64,000 nucleotides of DNA from Staphylococcus phage vB_SsapH-Golestan-100. Positions within the stretch are counted from its first letter, which is position 1. Each line of letters opens with the position of its first letter. The notes beneath the pieces are model-generated. The model ran no database searches. It worked only from the letters and a program-made list of their open reading frames with translations, and was not told the DNA's origin. The position numbers and the translations under genes are program-made. This document shows, in pieces, positions 20,258 through 28,100 of this stretch. The stretch lies in the sequence record LC647030.1, one strand, 5' to 3'.

Positions 20258-21118
20258 TTGGCAATAGTAAGCCCTGATACATATATTTCACAATTATTAA
20301 AAGATAAAACAAGAGCATTACTATCAAAGTGCTATATTATGAAGGAAGTTTTAAAAGACTTTGATAGTGAGGTGAGGGACAATTTCCTACAAGATTTTTG
20401 TGGTGAGAATCCTAAGTTAGACGTTAATATTTCCTATACATTTCCACAGAGCCCATTAGAAGCTACAGCAAGTTATGTTGTGCAACTGGGAAACAGCAAT
20501 GAGAATGGTTCATCACTAGGGAATATCTTAGGTTCTTATGAAGGAGAAGAGGGGGATGAGAATTCTGTACAGCTAGAAATACAAGAAGCTGAAGATTACT
20601 TATTCTTCGAGTTCCCTACTGAACTAGCTTCTATGCCAATATCTACTGACCTTCAATTCTCAGATTATGATAATGTAACTTTAGATAAAAACCTCTTAAA
20701 GATACGAAAGGATGGTAATGAACATTTAGTTGGTAATTACTATACATTCTTTTATATTGAACATAGAGGAGATAGTAAAGGTAGTGTGAAAGGGTTCGAG
20801 GCCGATGAATCGGTAGTTGTTATACCTCTAAGTAACTCAATTGATACAGCAAGATGCTTGGATGCTGTTCTTAAAATGATACTAATAATGTCAAGAGAGA
20901 ACCTAGAAGAGCAAAATGTTATGAAGTTGCAAAATCTTACTTTTGGGGACATGGCTCCTGTATATGATGATGGTGAAAGACCAATATTTGGGAGACCTGT
21001 AACAATTAGATACCAAGTAACACACTCTATTGATTACACAATAGCTAGAGAAATAACAGAACTATTATTTAAAACACGTGGAGGTTACACAGATGGCAAA
21101 GAAGAAACAAACAGTTAA
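20258..21118 (+). CDS. Hypothetical structural-module protein (286 aa)
   Basis: TTG start with RBS ggagg. Confidence 0.45.
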   Translation: MAIVSPDTYISQLLKDKTRALLSKCYIMKEVLKDFDSEVRDNFLQDFCGENPKLDVNISYTFPQSPLEATASYVVQLGNSNENGSSLGNILGSYEGEEGDENSVQLEIQEAEDYLFFEFPTELASMPISTDLQFSDYDNVTLDKNLLKIRKDGNEHLVGNYYTFFYIEHRGDSKGSVKGFEADESVVVIPLSNSIDTARCLDAVLKMILIMSRENLEEQNVMKLQNLTFGDMAPVYDDGERPIFGRPVTIRYQVTHSIDYTIAREITELLFKTRGGYTDGKEETNS

Positions 21119-21326: not shown

Positions 21327-23156
21327 ATGGCAGAAATACAATACCCACGTTATGACATTAGTAGACCTCACACAGTCATTAAAACAGACACAAGTAATTT
21401 AAGTGGTACTGCAAGTGACAGTGAGAAAGTTCTTTGCCTTATCGGTAAGGCAGAGGGAGGAAAACCTAATACAGTCTATGAAATAAAAAATATTACATTT
21501 GCAAGAAGCATTTTCCGTTCAGGTGAACTGATGGATGCAATTGAGTTAGCTTGGACAGGCTCTCCTGATGCAACAGCAGGAACAATTCTTGCGATGCGTT
21601 TAGAGAATGCAGAAGCATCTCAGTTAACAACAACTGGAATGAAAGTCCTTTCTAAGGTTTACGGTAGTGTATCTAACAATATCTCTGTAGCATTAGAGGA
21701 TAACACAATCTCAGACTCAAAACGTTTAAAAGTTAATTTCCCTGATGATAACAGATTTGAAGTATACGACAACTTAGGTAACATCTTCCAAATCCATTAT
21801 ACGGGTGATGAGGGTTCAGCATTCTATAGTGTTGTTAAAGACCCTGAAACTCATAAATCAACTAAATTAGTTTTATCAGTAGGAAGCAAGATTGATGCTG
21901 AAGAAGCTAAGAAAGGTAATGTTGTTTTAGGAGCTACTCAAGCAGAAGACCCTGAAAATGTAAGTGTTGAAGCAGGTGAGGAAAGTGCTAATGTTACAGC
22001 CACTCAATCAACTCCTGAAGGCACTGGAAGAATTGCTAAAATTTACGACTTAGCTAAAACATATAGAGATGCTAACTCACTTATCTCTGACATTAATAAC
22101 TTACCTGACTTTGAAGTTAAAGTTTCTCCATTTGGTGATAAGAATGTTGATACTACATCTTTAGATGAAGCAACTAACGTAAGTGTTAAAGAAGACTTTG
22201 TTTACCTTAAAGCTATTTTTGGTGACATCAAACTTCAAACAGAATACAGTGACCTTGTAGAATTTGAAGAAGTTCAAGGAGAGAAAATTGAAGCTTTTGA
22301 TGAAACATCGTTAACAGGTGGTTCTAATGGAGACCCTGTTACTACTTGGTCAGATAAATTTGCTAAGTTTGCTAATGAAGGTGGTTACTACTTAGTACCA
22401 TTAACTGATAAAGAATCTGTTCATGCAGAGGCAGGACACTTTGTAAAAGAACGTTCTGACATTGGTGAACCTATGAGAGCTATTGTAGGTGGAGGATTCA
22501 AAGAATCTAAAGAAAAGCTCTTAGCTCGTGTATCAGGACTAAAATCTAACCCACGTGTAATGCTTATTGCTTCTAGTGGTGAGTTCTCAATGCAAGATGG
22601 TCGTGCTTTACATGTACCAGCTTACTTGATGGCTTCTGCTATCGGTGGATTAGCTACAGGTTTAGACATTGGTGAATCTATTACATTCAAACGTTTATTC
22701 TTGAATAATCTAGACATTGTTTTAGATGGTACAGGTTTAGACCAATTGAATGATAATGGTATTGTACCTATTGAATTTGTACGTAGTCGTACTGAGACAT
22801 TCTTCCGTATTGTCAATGACATCACTACTTACAATGATAAATCAGACCCTGTTAAACAAGAGATGTCAGTCGGAGAAGCTAATGACTTCTTAGTATCTGA
22901 ACTTAAAGTTAGACTAGACAATAGATTCATTGGTACAAGAACATTTGCAACAAGTGCTTCACTTATCAAAGACTTCTTAATTGGATACTTGAATGAGAAA
23001 GTTGCAGACCAAGAAATCCAAGGATTTGATGCTGAAGACATCCAAGTTAGTGTAATTGGAAATCAAGCTCAAATTGCTATGACAGTTTACCCAATCAGAA
23101 GCTTCAAGAAAATTACTGTTAGCTTGGTTTACAAGCAACAAACATTACAAGCCTAA
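21327..23156 (+). CDS. Tail sheath protein
   Basis: 609 aa, immediately upstream of the tube gene, with size and position typical of myovirus sheath proteins. Confidence 0.6.
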   Translation: MAEIQYPRYDISRPHTVIKTDTSNLSGTASDSEKVLCLIGKAEGGKPNTVYEIKNITFARSIFRSGELMDAIELAWTGSPDATAGTILAMRLENAEASQLTTTGMKVLSKVYGSVSNNISVALEDNTISDSKRLKVNFPDDNRFEVYDNLGNIFQIHYTGDEGSAFYSVVKDPETHKSTKLVLSVGSKIDAEEAKKGNVVLGATQAEDPENVSVEAGEESANVTATQSTPEGTGRIAKIYDLAKTYRDANSLISDINNLPDFEVKVSPFGDKNVDTTSLDEATNVSVKEDFVYLKAIFGDIKLQTEYSDLVEFEEVQGEKIEAFDETSLTGGSNGDPVTTWSDKFAKFANEGGYYLVPLTDKESVHAEAGHFVKERSDIGEPMRAIVGGGFKESKEKLLARVSGLKSNPRVMLIASSGEFSMQDGRALHVPAYLMASAIGGLATGLDIGESITFKRLFLNNLDIVLDGTGLDQLNDNGIVPIEFVRSRTETFFRIVNDITTYNDKSDPVKQEMSVGEANDFLVSELKVRLDNRFIGTRTFATSASLIKDFLIGYLNEKVADQEIQGFDAEDIQVSVIGNQAQIAMTVYPIRSFKKITVSLVYKQQTLQA

Positions 23157-23228
23157 TCTAGGTGATGGAGTACCTAGGTTAGGTACTCCTATTAATATAA
23201 TTTAAATATTCTAGGAGAGTGAATATAG

Positions 23229-23556
23229 ATGGCATCAGAAAAGAAACAGTCTGTACACAGTGGTAATACCGTCTACATTATGGTAGGTGGAAAAATCGTT
23301 GGTCGTGCACAATCAGCTTCAGGACAACGTGAATATGGTACTACAGGTGTTTATGAAATTGGTTCTATTATGCCTCAAGAACACGTATACTTACGTTATG
23401 AGGGTACAATCACAGTAGAACGTTTACGTATGAAAAAAGAGAACTTTGCTAAGTTAGGCTTTGCTTCACTAGGTGAAGAGATTCTTAAAAAAGACGTAAT
23501 TGACCTTGTAGTCGTAGATAATTTAACTAAAGATGTTATTATATCTTACCACGGTT
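23229..23556 (+). CDS. Tail tube protein, exon 1. The in-frame TAA at 23556-23558 is proposed to be intronic.
   Basis: RBS aggagag. 109 codons. Exon 1 ends GGUU and can pair with the intron IGS GACC. Confidence 0.5.
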
Positions 23557-23791
23557 AAAATAATTGACCCCTCTATTAGGAAACTAATAGTTGAATCATA
23601 CCTTACAGAAAAAATAGTTTAGATACCATAAGCTGAGAAAAAGCTCTAAATTGATTAGAGTGCTAAGTGGTTAATAATCGGAAATCAGCATCGAAGCTCC
23701 TGTAAAATGGATAACGTTCAACGACTATAATAGGTAGACCTTAAATGGTTATGGTATAGTCTAGCCCCTTTAAAATATATCGAAAGATAGG
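23557..23791 (+). mobile_element. Small ORF-less group I intron in the tail tube gene
   Basis: R element GUUCAACGACUAUA at 23716-23730. S element GGUAUAGUCUAGCC at 23753-23766. P1 is the hairpin GGUU|AAaauaaUUGACC. The 5' region ugaCCCCUCUAU resembles the terL intron cagCCCCUAUCG. A short open frame follows, ending exactly at the terminator. Confidence 0.55.
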
Positions 23792-23904
23792 GTATAAGCG
23801 GTAGCGCACAGAACTATAATGAAGAATTCCGAGTAGGGGAAATCGTAACAGAACAAATTGCTTTCCTTTACCTATATGCTAGTGATAAAGCTTCAAGCAA
23901 GTAA
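23792..23904 (+). CDS. Tail tube protein, exon 2. Predicted spliced product is about 146 aa.
   Basis: After splicing, codon t|gt is followed by ISGSAQNYNEEFRVGEIVTEQIAFLYLYASDKASSK and then a stop. The intrinsic terminator starts 5 nt after this stop. Confidence 0.45.
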
Positions 23905-23908
23905 TACT

Positions 23909-23941
23909 AAGAGACCTAAATATAAGGTCTCTTTTTTTTTG
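23909..23941 (+). terminator. Rho-independent terminator
   Basis: agagacct/aggtctct stem followed by T9. Confidence 0.65.
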
Positions 23942-24008
23942 TCTAAGGATATAGACCCTATGTTATATTAAATTGTATAAGAAAAGACTATACAAAAAAC
24001 TCCTTGTA

Positions 24009-24017
24009 TGTTATAAT
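24009..24017 (+). promoter_or_regulatory. Extended -10 promoter (TGTTATAAT) for the chaperone/TMP operon
   Basis: tgttataat, 34 nt upstream of the chaperone ATG. Confidence 0.35.
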
Positions 24018-24050
24018 AGATTATATCAAATAGGTAAAGGAGAAGGAATA

Positions 24051-24509
24051 ATGACAGAACAAGATAAAAACAAGGAAACTATTGAACAAGAAGAGAAAGT
24101 AGAAGAAAAAAATTATAGTAAGATGACTAAAGAAGAAATTGATGCTATTAAGTATAAAGAGGAAGAAGAGCAAGAAGTTGTATTAGATAAGATACTTAAA
24201 GGCGTAAATGATGTATTTAAAAAAGACTATGATTTTAAAGAGCTAGACTTAAAGTTCTCTATAGCACTACACATACCTAATGCTCTAGAAACAGGTAGAA
24301 TATTAAAGCTAACTTCTGAACTTCTAGATGGTGACGTGTTCAATGTACCTAAGATGTATTACGATGCATTCCATATGTTAGCTACAATTATGGTTGTAGG
24401 TGACGACATCCCTAAAGAGTTTGAAGACCCTGAAAAAGTGTATAACTTAGACCCATTACTTATTGTAAGAAGGGATTGGTTAGAGTTCTTAAACTCCTTT
24501 CGCTATTAG
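24051..24509 (+). CDS. Tail assembly chaperone (gpG-like), upstream frame
   Basis: ATG with a taaaggagaagg RBS; the track start at 23973 has no RBS. The product is acidic. The gene lies between the tube and TMP genes. Confidence 0.55.
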   Translation: MTEQDKNKETIEQEEKVEEKNYSKMTKEEIDAIKYKEEEEQEVVLDKILKGVNDVFKKDYDFKELDLKFSIALHIPNALETGRILKLTSELLDGDVFNVPKMYYDAFHMLATIMVVGDDIPKEFEDPEKVYNLDPLLIVRRDWLEFLNSFRY

Positions 24510-25119
24510 AGAAAGCACTGTAGACGCATATGAGATAGATGATGTTGGGGGTTATGATGTTATAGCTAAAACCCCCAAAGCTAGAAATATGTGGGCTATT
24601 ATGAAAGAGTTTAAAGTACTACCAACAGACCAAAGGTTCCAAGACTTGAGTATGCATCAAATAAACTTTATTATAGCATCAATGAACTATGATGTTAAAC
24701 TCCAAGAAAGAGCTAATAGAGGAATAGACATCAACTCTACAATTGAAGATAATGATACTTCATGGTGGGATGCTCCGCATGATGAATTTAACCCTATTGC
24801 TGAAGGTCATGATGAAGAAGACATTGCTAGACAAGTAGAAGAACGTCTTACTGAAGCAGAACGTAAGTCTATGAAAGATAGATTTGAAGATGAGATTGCT
24901 TATGAAGAGTACATCAGAAATGGTGGCGTAGACTTCGAGAAAGAATCTATTAAGCAGATAATTCATAACAACTTAGAAGAACTTAGAGAAGAAGCGCAAA
25001 GTGGTGAATTTACTGAAGGAACTACCCCAACGATACAAGAAACATCAGAAGAAGACATTCAAGAAGCAATTAACTTGTTTGATGAAGAGAATGATGATGA
25101 CCTAAGTGGTTACATGTAA
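24493..25119 (+). CDS. Tail assembly chaperone extension (gpGT-like), probably expressed by a +1 frameshift from 24051..24509
   Basis: The +1 frame opens at 24493 and overlaps the upstream stop by 17 nt. There is no RBS before the first ATG at 24589. A candidate shift site is UUU_CGC at 24498-24503. Confidence 0.4.
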   Translation, partial: TPFAIRESTVDAYEIDDVGGYDVIAKTPKARNMWAIMKEFKVLPTDQRFQDLSMHQINFIIASMNYDVKLQERANRGIDINSTIEDNDTSWWDAPHDEFNPIAEGHDEEDIARQVEERLTEAERKSMKDRFEDEIAYEEYIRNGGVDFEKESIKQIIHNNLEELREEAQSGEFTEGTTPTIQETSEEDIQEAINLFDEENDDDLSGYM

Positions 25120-25150
25120 GACAGGGGTCACACCCTGTCTATTATTTTTA
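25120..25150 (+). terminator. Hairpin plus U run; weak terminator or attenuator before the TMP gene
   Basis: gacaggg/ccctgtc stem followed by tattattttta. Confidence 0.4.
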
Positions 25151-25166
25151 TGGTAGGTGAGAACAT

Positions 25167-28100
25167 TTGGATAATTATAGAATTCGAGTCACAGGTGATG
25201 GCTCCAATGCTTTAAATGAGATACAAAAGATTAATAAAGCAATGGACAATATTGACAAACGTGACAGTGGTAAAGGATTTAAAGGAATAGAAAGTGCCTT
25301 AAAGAATGTTAGTAAGTTGACAGATGAAATCAATAAATCTGTAGACAATGCTAGTAACAAAAGCGTACTATCACAATCGCAACTAGAAAAAGACCAAAAA
25401 AATATACAACAAACTTTAGATACGTTAAGAGCTCTTAGAACGGAAGTAGACAGAGCTACTAAACAAGCATCTAAAAAAGGATTAACATTAGACCCTCAAG
25501 CTCAACGTTCTTATAAAGCACTAGGTAAAGAAATAGATAAGATAGCTCAGAAGAGAGACATGTTAGGTAGTAAAAATGTAAAACCTGATGCTTCTATGAG
25601 ACAAGCTATTAATGATGCTAAGGTGTTTGAAAGCAGAACTCAAAAAGCTACAGACGCATTACGAGAGCAACAACGTGTAGCTAAACAGTTACAAAGAGAT
25701 AATAGGGAAGCAACAAGAGCAAGTCGTATTGTAAACGATGGGTTAACTAATGGGAGAGTTACATACAATGATAGACAACGATTGAACTCTGCATTAGATA
25801 AAGGTCGTGACGTAGGTGGTACACCAAGCTATTACAAGCAACAGTCTAATAAAATACAAAGTAATATAGAATCATCAGGTTCTGCTATTAGAGAAAATAG
25901 AGAAAAGATAGAAGCATTAAACAAAAGACCTCAAAATTTGGAGAACAAAGAACGTAAAGCTCAATTGATGGATGAGAATGAAGAGCTAGAAAAATTAATT
26001 AGAAACCTTCAAAAAGCTAAAGGTCGTTATGAGGACATGGATGCTACAGCTAAGAAGAACTTTAATGCTACTAAAACAGAAACAGGTAGAGATTCATTTG
26101 GTACCCAAGCTGAAAGAGGTTCCTTTAAAGCAACTATGGCTGATAGAGCACCATCTATAGCAATGGCTGGTATTGGAGCTACAGGTTTTGCCCTAACAAG
26201 TAGCTATATGAAAGGTGATACCATAAATAAGAGCAATAGAGACGACATGTTCTTTAGAGGTAATCTTATGGGAGAAACAGACTATGGTCAAGTCCGTAGA
26301 GATATGTTCTCTCAGGGCATAGATGCTGGTTATGGTTATAATGCAGAAAACTTAAATGCAATGGCTGGACAATATCTAGAAGTTAATGGATACCAAGGTA
26401 AAAAATCTATGGAAGAGGGGCTTACTCAGTACCAAAGAGCAGGTCGTTCCCTAAATATAGACAATGAAGCTTTCCAACAGTCTTATACTAATATTGGTAG
26501 AACAGGTGGTATGCAAGGTGGTCAAGAGATTGCTGACTTTACCAATACTTTTGTAGGTGCCTTAGACAAATCTAAAATGACTCATAAAAGTGAACAACAG
26601 TTAAAAGCTTTAGATTCAATGGTATCACAAATGGGTAGTACAAGAACCCTAGGAGCTAATGATGTTAATGAGATGACTGCACTACAAGGTGTAATGGCTG
26701 AGTCAGGTCTCAAAACCTTACAAGGAGAAAAAGGTGCAGATGCTGTTAATAAAATCTCTACAGGTCTGCAATCTAATAAAACTGACCCATTTAACTTACA
26801 GGCTATGGGATACGGTTCAGAGTTAAATAGCGTTTCAGGTTTGAGAGAAGCTATGCGTAGAGAAGATGAAGGAGCAACACCTGAGAATATTAAAAGATTA
26901 ATAAGCCAATCAGGTGGCGGAGACATGTCTGCTATTGCTTTACAAACACAGTTTGGTCTATCTTCAGAACAAGCAGACGGTATGTTAAAACTATACGATG
27001 AAGGTAAGTTAGACAAAAAGAATATTGACAAGTACATGGAAGACTCTAAGAAAAAAGGCAAGAAAAAAGCTGATAAGGACTCAGACAATGTTAAGGACTC
27101 TAAAGAAAATAAAGCTAATAAAAATGAAGTTGCAAGAGAAAGCCAAAATTCTAGAACAAGAGAAAACGGTCAATGGGTTGATGATTTAGCATCAGCAGGT
27201 ACTAGCTTAAACAACGCTGGATACCTATTAACTGCGGCCGCTGGAGCACTTATGGTCTCTGCTACTGGAAGTGCGCTGATGGGTGGACTAAGTTCTATGG
27301 TTCGTAAGTTAGGTTCTAAAGGTATTAAAGGTACAGGTCAACATTACGGAGGTAAAGTCAAAGAGTTTGGTTCTAAAGCCAAAGAATGGGGCGGTAATGT
27401 TAGACGTGGCGGAAGTGATAACGCTGGTAAAACTTCTAAAGGTGGAGAATCTACTAAAGGTGGAACTAAAGGCGGTCAAACAGACTCTATGAGAGACTTT
27501 AAAACCTTTGACAAAGATTCTACATCAGGCAAGACTAAAAGAGGTAGAATGAGAGGCTTTGGTAAAACTATTACTGATGCTGGTAGAAGCTTCGGAGACT
27601 TTATAGGTCTAGGTGGAGATACCGCTAAAAACCAAAATGGTCGTGGACTAGGAAGAAGTGCTACAGGTAATACAAGACGTGCTAAGTTTGGTAAAGGTCT
27701 AAAAGACTTTATCTTTAGAGACCCTATGAGTAAAGGCGGAGCAGGTATTATATCAGGAGGTAGCAAAGCTGGTAATATAGCCAAAGGAGCTGTAGGAAAA
27801 CTAGGGCTTATTGGCGCAGGTATAAACGCTATAGACATTGGAAGCTCACTAGCAAAAGGTGATGACAAAGCAGTTTCTAGTAAGTTTGGTAATTTCATGG
27901 GAGGTATAATAGACCCTCTAGGTCTAGGTTACGGTGATGGTCTTAAGAAACATGCTACAGAAACAGCTGACAAAGCTCAGAATAATAAAGGCTTATTTGG
28001 TAAAGGTGGCTTAATAGACTTTAGTTGGAGTAATGGAGATAAAGATAGTAAAAACCAATTTAAAGACTCTATACTAGGCAAACCTATCTCCAAAGCTTGG

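Follow-up and report, generated by a model that had tools for sequence, protein, structure and literature searches.

The window analysed here is a stretch of 64,000 nucleotides from Staphylococcus phage vB_SsapH-Golestan-100 (LC647030.1). Its closest relatives are the Staphylococcus phages S2G3 and Fi4S2, with 97.8% nucleotide identity, and remoter matches are found among the Twort-like phages of Staphylococcus and Mammaliicoccus. The region is the tail module of a Herelleviridae (Twort-like) Staphylococcus myophage, in which the genes follow one another in the order sheath (21327-23156), tube (23229-23889), G, T, tape measure protein (1346 aa, from 25167) and tail lysin (797 aa). The G/T pair is therefore preceded by the tail tube (major tail) gene and followed by that of the tape measure protein. 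The original prediction had placed an ORF between these two genes, and this position holds, but the tube gene upstream of G is itself split. The features of the locus are collected in Table 1. In the P100-like Listeria phage CKA15, the homologous G and T lie on one transcript between a mapped TSS and TTS (PMC12282133).

Table 1. Features of the G/T locus, in window positions
Feature	Position	Strand	Basis
Promoter-like site, TATACA-17-TATAAT with TG extension, upstream of G	23989-24017	+	Consensus scan, 10/12 match; function inferred
Gene G, predicted tail assembly chaperone, 152 aa, product of standard decoding	24051-24509	+	phrog_1038; strong SD (-9.6 kcal/mol); position between tube and tape measure genes
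+1-frame TAA, 8 nt upstream of UUU, closing the +1 frame before the shift site	24490-24492	+	Sequence; same position in 21/37 relatives
Putative shift cassette UCC_UUU_CGC (E-, P- and A-site codons)	24495-24503	+	TTTC in 37/37, then G in 34/37; base -1 is C in 28/37
Putative slip tetranucleotide UUU_C; skipped base would be C 24501	24498-24501	+	TTTC conservation; sole in-frame TTT_CG of the window
TAG stop of G, two codons past the A-site CGC	24507-24509	+	Sequence; same offset in 35/37 relatives
T segment, 205 +1-frame codons, proposed to be made only as the C-terminal part of a G-T fusion	24502-25119	+	phrog_4988, phrog_1316, T alignment
Part of T before the first ATG: variable linker, then GG (24547-24552) and RN (24583-24588)	24502-24588	+	T alignment, wobble periodicity
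ATG 24589 and ATG 24601, internal Met codons, probably not starts	24589-24603	+	No SD; Leu at 24589 in 8/16 relatives
Terminator-like hairpin and T-run, putative end of the G-T transcription unit	25119-25140	+	Sequence scan

The G and T reading frames overlap by 17 nt. G ends in the codons TGG TTA GAG TTC TTA AAC TCC TTT CGC TAT TAG; its codons start at positions 0 mod 3 and those of T at positions 1 mod 3, which places T in the +1 (equivalently, the -2) frame. The +1 frame is open from 24493 because a +1-frame TAA occupies the three preceding bases, and it stays open for 205 further codons after the UUU_C, up to the T stop codon at 25117-25119. The third frame, by comparison, closes within a median of 4 codons past the site in the 37 non-redundant loci described below. 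A +1-frame stop lying eight bases 5' of TTT, present in 21 of these 37 loci, confines the overlap to the cassette. The first ATG, GTG or TTG in the T frame is the ATG at 24589. The sequence thus bears out the original prediction that the first ORF stops at 24509, that the next is open in the +1 frame from 24493, and that their overlap contains UUU_CGC_UAU_UAG, which is found at 24498-24509.

Profile searches were made against the PHROG families, whose names are based on annotation rather than on experiment. G matched phrog_1038, 'tail assembly chaperone', with an E-value of 2.5e-48. A second family annotated as 'tail assembly chaperone', phrog_4988 (350 positions), matched both proteins: its positions 11-139 aligned with G and its positions 141-304 with the +1-frame T, with E-values of 1e-29 and 7e-32 for the two parts. 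As phrog_4988 spans G and T contiguously, database members in which both parts are joined must already exist. T also matched phrog_1316, which is named 'RNA polymerase beta subunit'; we rejected this name as a propagated misannotation with no support from Pfam or PDB profiles. Searches of Pfam with G and T gave no match, nor did PDB profile searches with either protein, and an AlphaFold2 model of the G-T fusion, built on an alignment of only 6 sequences, had a mean pLDDT of 44. The prediction that G and T are a tail assembly chaperone pair of the gpG/gpGT type joined by frameshifting, as originally put forward, is supported by the tube-tape measure position, the overlap, the conserved TTT_C and the chaperone profiles.

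The comparative survey of the shift site started from 17 phages in GenBank, of Staphylococcus, Mammaliicoccus, Listeria, Enterococcus, Bacillus, Lactobacillus and Brochothrix. A further 68 IMG/VR contigs were added by alignment of the T domain, giving 85 loci in total, and the loci that were <85% identical over 180 nt made up a non-redundant set of 37; the survey statistics count lineages as independent. T lies in the +1 frame relative to G at all 17 GenBank loci, which cover seven host genera, and at all 68 IMG/VR loci (85/85). An in-frame TTT_C is present near the end of G at each of the 85 loci, and with few exceptions it precedes the stop by exactly two codons.

The conservation extends to synonymous positions. 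TTTC is found in 37 of the 37 non-redundant loci, the wobble base of the Phe codon included (2.0 bits), whereas TTT makes up 58% of the Phe codons in the background of the same genes (naive P 1e-9 for the wobble invariance, with lineages taken as independent). The base after TTTC is G in 34 loci, and the other three have CAA, in which the C is kept. The Arg codon at the site is CGN in 34 of 34 cases and never AGR, compared with 52% CGN among the Arg codons of the same genes, while its third base is free (A17 C10 G3 T7). On the other side of TTT, the E-site codons among the 37 loci are TCC (11), ACC (10), AAC (7), CGA (5) and others (4), the base immediately 5' of TTT being C in 28 and T in none. 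Where this codon encodes Ser it is TCC in 11 of 12 loci, and where it encodes Thr it is ACC in 10 of 13, against backgrounds of 8% of Ser codons and 10% of Thr codons, respectively. Moreover, the low-information (wobble) columns of the alignment switch at the site from the third position of frame 0 to that of frame +1. The usual extended signal, as read from these alignments, is NNC_UUU_CGN. A remoter relative (L086) keeps the +1 relation with UUU_UUU_CUG, and the invariant core is therefore UUU_C. A slip of tRNA-Phe that exchanged wobble pairing on UUU for Watson-Crick pairing on UUC would require just such a sequence. The conservation of the Phe-Arg pair could partly reflect constraints on the G protein, but these leave the invariance at synonymous sites unexplained. 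Judged by these alignments, the putative shift site is conserved across the whole Herelleviridae family.

Most GenBank records annotate T as a separate protein, which would be translated from its own start at ATG 24601 (or 24589) with no fusion being made. The Met at 24601 is invariant in the alignment of 17 T sequences, whose identity is 24-47%, and a few relatives carry a weak SD-like motif 5' of it; in the relatives, however, this Met is mostly without an SD, and in the window neither ATG has one. For pairing with the anti-SD, the prediction is -0.6 kcal/mol at 24589 and -4.1 kcal/mol at 24601, as against -8.3 to -10.7 kcal/mol for five of the six annotated gene starts tested (the sixth, a 75-aa ORF at 21078, gave -1.0 kcal/mol) and -3.3 ± 2.7 kcal/mol for 65 internal ATGs. 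The position of ATG 24589, which is residue 30 of T, is occupied by a non-start Leu codon (CTT, CTA, TTA or CTG) in 8 of 16 relatives. The earlier reading of this ATG as having no Shine-Dalgarno sequence and no sensible start of its own was therefore correct.

The segment ahead of the first ATG argues in the same direction. In the T alignment G16, G17 and R28 are invariant and N29 and W31 nearly so, and these conserved residues lie upstream of or around the first ATG of the window. At least 21 of 33 non-redundant loci have no ATG, GTG or TTG in the +1 frame before the GG motif, and the GG residues can therefore be translated only by ribosomes coming from G. Together with the +1-frame wobble periodicity, the invariant GG...RN upstream of the candidate starts speaks against a free-standing T, which would also leave unexplained the invariant TTT_C and the constant +1 relation. 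We consider independent translation as the sole source of T unlikely; some additional internal initiation at 24601 is possible.

The existence of a lineage in which G and T are fused in frame also argues against a separate T. While a word-indexed protein search returned 5 relatives only, an exhaustive search of 1.84 billion cluster representatives, with E up to 0.001, found 153. Among the best 150 of the 153, one spans G and T, and the remainder match G or T alone. The spanning protein, P0028, is 330 aa long and represents a cluster of 15 members, 14 of them also of 330 aa and all of them automatic gene calls; the contig counts listed for the cluster sum to >20, and the contigs reach 127 kb. 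In three samples the protein is encoded by one continuous ORF immediately 5' of the tape measure gene. These ORFs therefore define one metagenomic lineage with G and T fused in frame.

From the observed geometry of the frames, the conservation of the site and the coding character of the segment before the first ATG, we infer that a frameshift takes place here with limited efficiency: T is very probably made as a G-T fusion by a minority of ribosomes that shift by +1 at UUU_C. Most ribosomes would translate G and stop at the TAG at 24507. In the minority, peptidyl-tRNA-Phe (anticodon GAA) would sit on UUU 24498-24500 in the P site with CGC in the A site, and would exchange its G.U wobble pairing on UUU for full Watson-Crick pairing on UUC 24499-24501. 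The C at 24501 would be skipped, and decoding would resume at GCU 24502. The predicted product is a G-T fusion of 355 aa, encoded by 24051-24500 and 24502-25116, with the junction ...DWLEFLNSF/AIRESTVDAYEIDDVGG... (...DWLEFLNSF/AIRESTV...), and a +1 slip at UUU_C would yield the tryptic junction peptide DWLEFLNSFAIR. The re-pairing of tRNA-Phe from UUU to UUC had been part of the original prediction; it is supported by the invariant TTT_C, the +1 position of T at every locus, the conserved residues that precede any start, and the slip base annotated in the Bacillus phage Moonbeam (see below).

The same frame would be reached by a -2 shift, as in phage Mu, and the fusion would then read ...NSFFAIR... 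and give the peptide DWLEFLNSFFAIR. The GenBank protein of Staphylococcus phage Quidividi is annotated in this way (...GTFFVGN), and Mu gpGT is cited as a natural -2 case by Firth et al. (PMC3498833). However, the codons that lie two bases back are CCU (from UUU) and UUC (from CGC), neither of which can re-pair with the resident tRNA. In addition, a -2 shift accounts neither for the invariant C after UUU nor for the base before UUU that is never T, and the Moonbeam and Terranova proteins are annotated as +1 products. This route to the fusion is very unlikely.

A slip at the last sense codon of G, next to the stop, has in its favor that stop codons are classic +1 stimulators (PMC5009743) and that the G stop lies at a fixed distance, two codons past the A-site codon, in 35 of the 37 loci. 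The last sense codon itself is not conserved, however, but varies freely (TAT, AGA, TAC, TTC, AGG, AAG, CTT, GTA and others), most of these codons cannot re-pair in the +1 direction, and in the Lactobacillus phage Bacchae the stop comes as late as 6 codons after UUU_CGC. Slippage at this codon is highly improbable for these reasons. A change of frame by transcriptional slippage, a sequencing error or a decaying pseudogene can practically be discounted, because no homopolymer at the site is longer than T3 and because the identical arrangement recurs in 85 independent genomes and contigs.

With regard to what might promote the +1 slip at UUU_C, the nearby stop had been invoked in the original prediction. 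It is probably not a stimulator: because it lies outside the A site, and is six codons away in Bacchae, we regard the G stop simply as the end of G. The slow or 'hungry' CGC codon proposed for the A site is an uncertain factor, since this codon, rare as it is in the phage (12 of 755 Arg codons), is decoded by the tRNA that also serves the common CGU. No conserved stimulatory RNA structure was detected among the 37 loci, the mean folding z-scores of -0.34 downstream and -0.46 upstream being like those of a control segment; the window segment 24490-24600 gave z -1.66, and an Rfam search over 23100-25300 returned nothing relevant. A perfect 9-bp hairpin at 24545-24578 was considered as a stimulator and rejected, as it arises from the Gly-Gly codons and is not conserved. 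An upstream SD stimulator like that of prfB was likewise sought in the 37 loci, where positions -8 to -5 are purine-rich with no consistent SD, and no tRNA genes that might tune the site were found within the window. The signal thus seems to consist of nothing more than the short cassette NNC_UUU_CGN, without conserved RNA structure, although failure to predict a structure does not prove that the cassette acts autonomously.

The use of the tetranucleotide elsewhere in the phage is also informative. In the 49 ORFs of the window (18,732 codons), in-frame TTT_C was observed 18 times against 65 expected (P 3e-13), while in-frame TTC_C is enriched (46 versus 27). In-frame TTT_CG occurs once against 6.2 expected, and the sole case is the shift site. 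Of the 219 TTT codons counted in the bodies of G and T across the 37 relatives, 10 are followed by C, compared with an expectation of about 15%. These counts fit the view that UUU_C is shift-prone in these hosts and is tolerated only where the shift is used; the strong in-frame avoidance suggests that the tetranucleotide is costly where a shift is unwanted.

This kind of site has already been recognised in some relatives. The genome announcement of the Bacillus phage Moonbeam describes a tail chaperone with 'an unusual +1 frameshift' (PMC4299906), and in its record (CPT_Moonbeam71/72) the CDS is joined with the remark 'ribosomal slippage (48971)', a coordinate that maps to the final T of the homologous TTT (here within TTT_CAA). 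In the Bacillus phage Hobo (gp95/96), gp96 is a joined CDS. The 'tail tape measure chaperone' of the Staphylococcus phage Terranova reads ...FLGTF/VGNRD, a +1 junction, and the Quidividi chaperone is a joined CDS with the -2-style join discussed above. These four phages share with the window the homologous G and T, the position before the tape measure gene, the +1 relation and the UUU_C, although Moonbeam has UUU_CAA where the window has UUU_CGC. The +1 direction, which had been called the rarer one, is indeed rarer than -1, but it had thus already been reported for this phage family. The site described here is an unannotated case, and the fusion is unmarked in the closest relatives: the records of S2G3, Fi4S2 and most Staphylococcus, Listeria and Enterococcus phages show two separate genes, and a multi-omics study of a P100-like Listeria phage, published in 2025, presents T as a hypothetical gene of its own (PMC12282133). 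In the papers searched we found no demonstration of the fusion by mass spectrometry, western blot or a reporter, in this phage or its relatives.

The main value of the present work lies in a definition of the signal for the whole family, the correction of widespread misannotation, and a resemblance to a eukaryotic +1 cassette that can be put to the test. T stands free in most Herelleviridae records of Staphylococcus, Listeria and Enterococcus phages, including therapeutic Kayvirus-type phages and P100, from which the 355-aa fusion is missing, and the name given to it is often wrong, either 'RNA polymerase beta subunit' or TmpB. Hundreds of records would be corrected by one rule, namely to skip the C in the last TTT_C that is in frame in G. 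Furthermore, through its natural variation the family supplies a deep alignment of a minimal +1 signal for bacterial ribosomes, with which the roles of the E and A sites can be tested in bacteria.

Among other phage systems, one close parallel is lambda gpG/gpGT, which uses a -1 programmed frameshift at a tandem slippery heptamer (Levin 1993; Xu 2004; summarised in PMC5009743). In both cases, overlapping ORFs lie between the tube or shaft gene and the tape measure gene, the second ORF lacks a start, and a minor fusion shares its N-terminus with the major product, the last point being proposed here from the sequence. The lambda shift is, however, in the -1 direction and belongs to a siphovirus, whereas the shift proposed here is +1 and belongs to a myovirus, with no detectable sequence similarity in G or T. 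By analogy with lambda, binding of the tape measure protein would fall to the G part and recruitment of tube subunits to the T part, and neither G nor G-T would be part of the finished virion. Phage Mu gpGT is likewise a myovirus chaperone pair with the second ORF in the +1/-2 frame, but there the ribosome moves back two bases and one residue is added, while the sequence here does not allow re-pairing at -2.

With respect to the slip itself, UUU_Ynn is described as especially prone to +1 shifting in bacteria, even without a stop (PMC5009743). Re-pairing in the P site one base forward, as proposed here, is common to the bacterial UUU_Y sites, to prfB (CUU_UGA with an SD) and to the tsh gene of the Listeria phages PSA and A118 (CCC_UGA). 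In the window, by contrast, the A site is occupied by a sense codon, and the aligned loci showed no conserved SD-like element.

Further comparisons are with eukaryotic systems. UCC_UUU_CGU in influenza A PA-X is a proven +1 site that needs no RNA structure (PMC3498833). UCC_UUU_CGG in human PLEKHM2 is also a proven +1 site, generalised as YCC_UUU_CG, with no downstream structure (PMC11451614), and the plant amalgaviruses use the +1 motif UUU_CGN (PMC5052127). Firth et al. predicted a class of +1 signals consisting of UUU_C with restricted E- and A-site codons (PMC3498833), and the phage family, judged from its aligned loci, fits the description of this class. The window sequence UCC_UUU_CGC matches the YCC_UUU_CG cassette in the P-site UUU_C, the A-site CGN and the E-site NCC. 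The eukaryotic cassettes nevertheless act on 80S ribosomes and in unrelated genes, whereas the phage site would act on bacterial ribosomes; moreover, ACC or AAC occupies the E site in the phage family as often as UCC does, and CAA or CUG can stand in the A site. In the papers searched we found none that links the phage chaperone site to the eukaryotic cassette. Although we lean slightly against it, the Herelleviridae site might be the bacterial counterpart of the autonomous YCC_UUU_CG cassette, which would then promote +1 frameshifting on both 70S and 80S ribosomes, with the E-site NCC and the A-site CGN contributing. If this is true, a large phage family has preserved the cassette throughout its history, with UUU_C being purged from its other genes.

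At the proposed +1 shift site, tRNA would slip on the UUU_C of the UCC_UUU_CGC cassette joining the tail assembly chaperone gene G to the downstream ORF T. Across the 49 ORFs of the whole window there is a strong depletion of in-frame TTT_C, with 18 occurrences observed against 65 expected, while TTC_C is enriched; for ATT_C and TAT_C the depletion is only mild. This codon usage suggests a genome-wide selection against the +1-prone tetranucleotide. At the shift site itself the A-site codon varies among relatives. UUU_CAA replaces UUU_CGN in Moonbeam, Alsa_2 and one further contig, and the related locus L086 carries UUU_UUU_CUG. Because CAA and CUG variants occur, Arg/CGN is not strictly needed, while the C is.

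Directly 5' of the cassette, a stop codon in the +1 frame (positions -8 to -6 relative to TTT) is present in 21 of the 37 non-redundant loci (TAA in 8, TAG in 7 and TGA in 6). This stop appears to be a by-product, arising where a purine comes after the Leu or Met codon at -9 to -7. It leaves the cassette as the only place from which a shift can lead into +1-frame translation.

Features of the G-T region, its flanks and related loci
Feature	Position	Remark
Tube residues 1-109	23229-23555	tblastn with EFDG1 and P100 tube proteins
Tube C-terminal ~30 residues	about 23803-23889	different frame; same queries
Terminator-like hairpin	23909-23933	5' of G-T pair
Promoter-like site	23989-24017	between first terminator-like hairpin and G
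+1-frame stop codon	24490-24492	directly 5' of cassette
Hairpin in T linker	24545-24578	
Terminator-like hairpin	25119-25140	3' of G-T pair
Variant A-site loci	L049/L087 1479-1484; L004 1206-1211; L062; L086 2945-2953	
Fused G-T ORF	L088 3001-3993	likewise L089, L090

In one metagenomic lineage (L088-L090), G and T form a single in-frame ORF of 330 aa that adjoins the tape measure gene. TTT_C is absent from this fused ORF; its G-T junction carries CTG_AAA_AAC, where the -1 frame reaches a stop after five codons.

About 45 nt 3' of the shift site, the T linker holds a perfect 9-bp hairpin (arms TTGGGGGTT and AACCCCCAA, 16-nt loop) that rests on the conserved Gly-Gly codons. The fold around it is not significant (z -1.66), and no conserved RNA structure was seen in this region among relatives.

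The label 'RNA polymerase beta subunit', which is the name of phrog_1316 and of T in many GenBank records, is widespread for the T ORF (24502-25119) and its homologues in related loci (L003-L009, L016); 'TmpB' and 'tail protein' are also used. A polymerase relationship was unsupported by Pfam or PDB profile searches.

Upstream, the tail tube gene (23229-23889) lies in two pieces separated by about 245 nt. This gap, which matches group I intron RF00028 weakly and below threshold (16.3 bits against a gathering score of 50 bits, E 0.43), is probably a small group I intron without an ORF. Given the flanking terminator-like hairpins and the promoter-like site, the G-T pair appears to be a transcription unit of its own, distinct from the tube gene on one side and the tape measure gene on the other, and transcript mapping in the P100-like Listeria phage CKA15 agrees with such a separate unit (PMC12282133).
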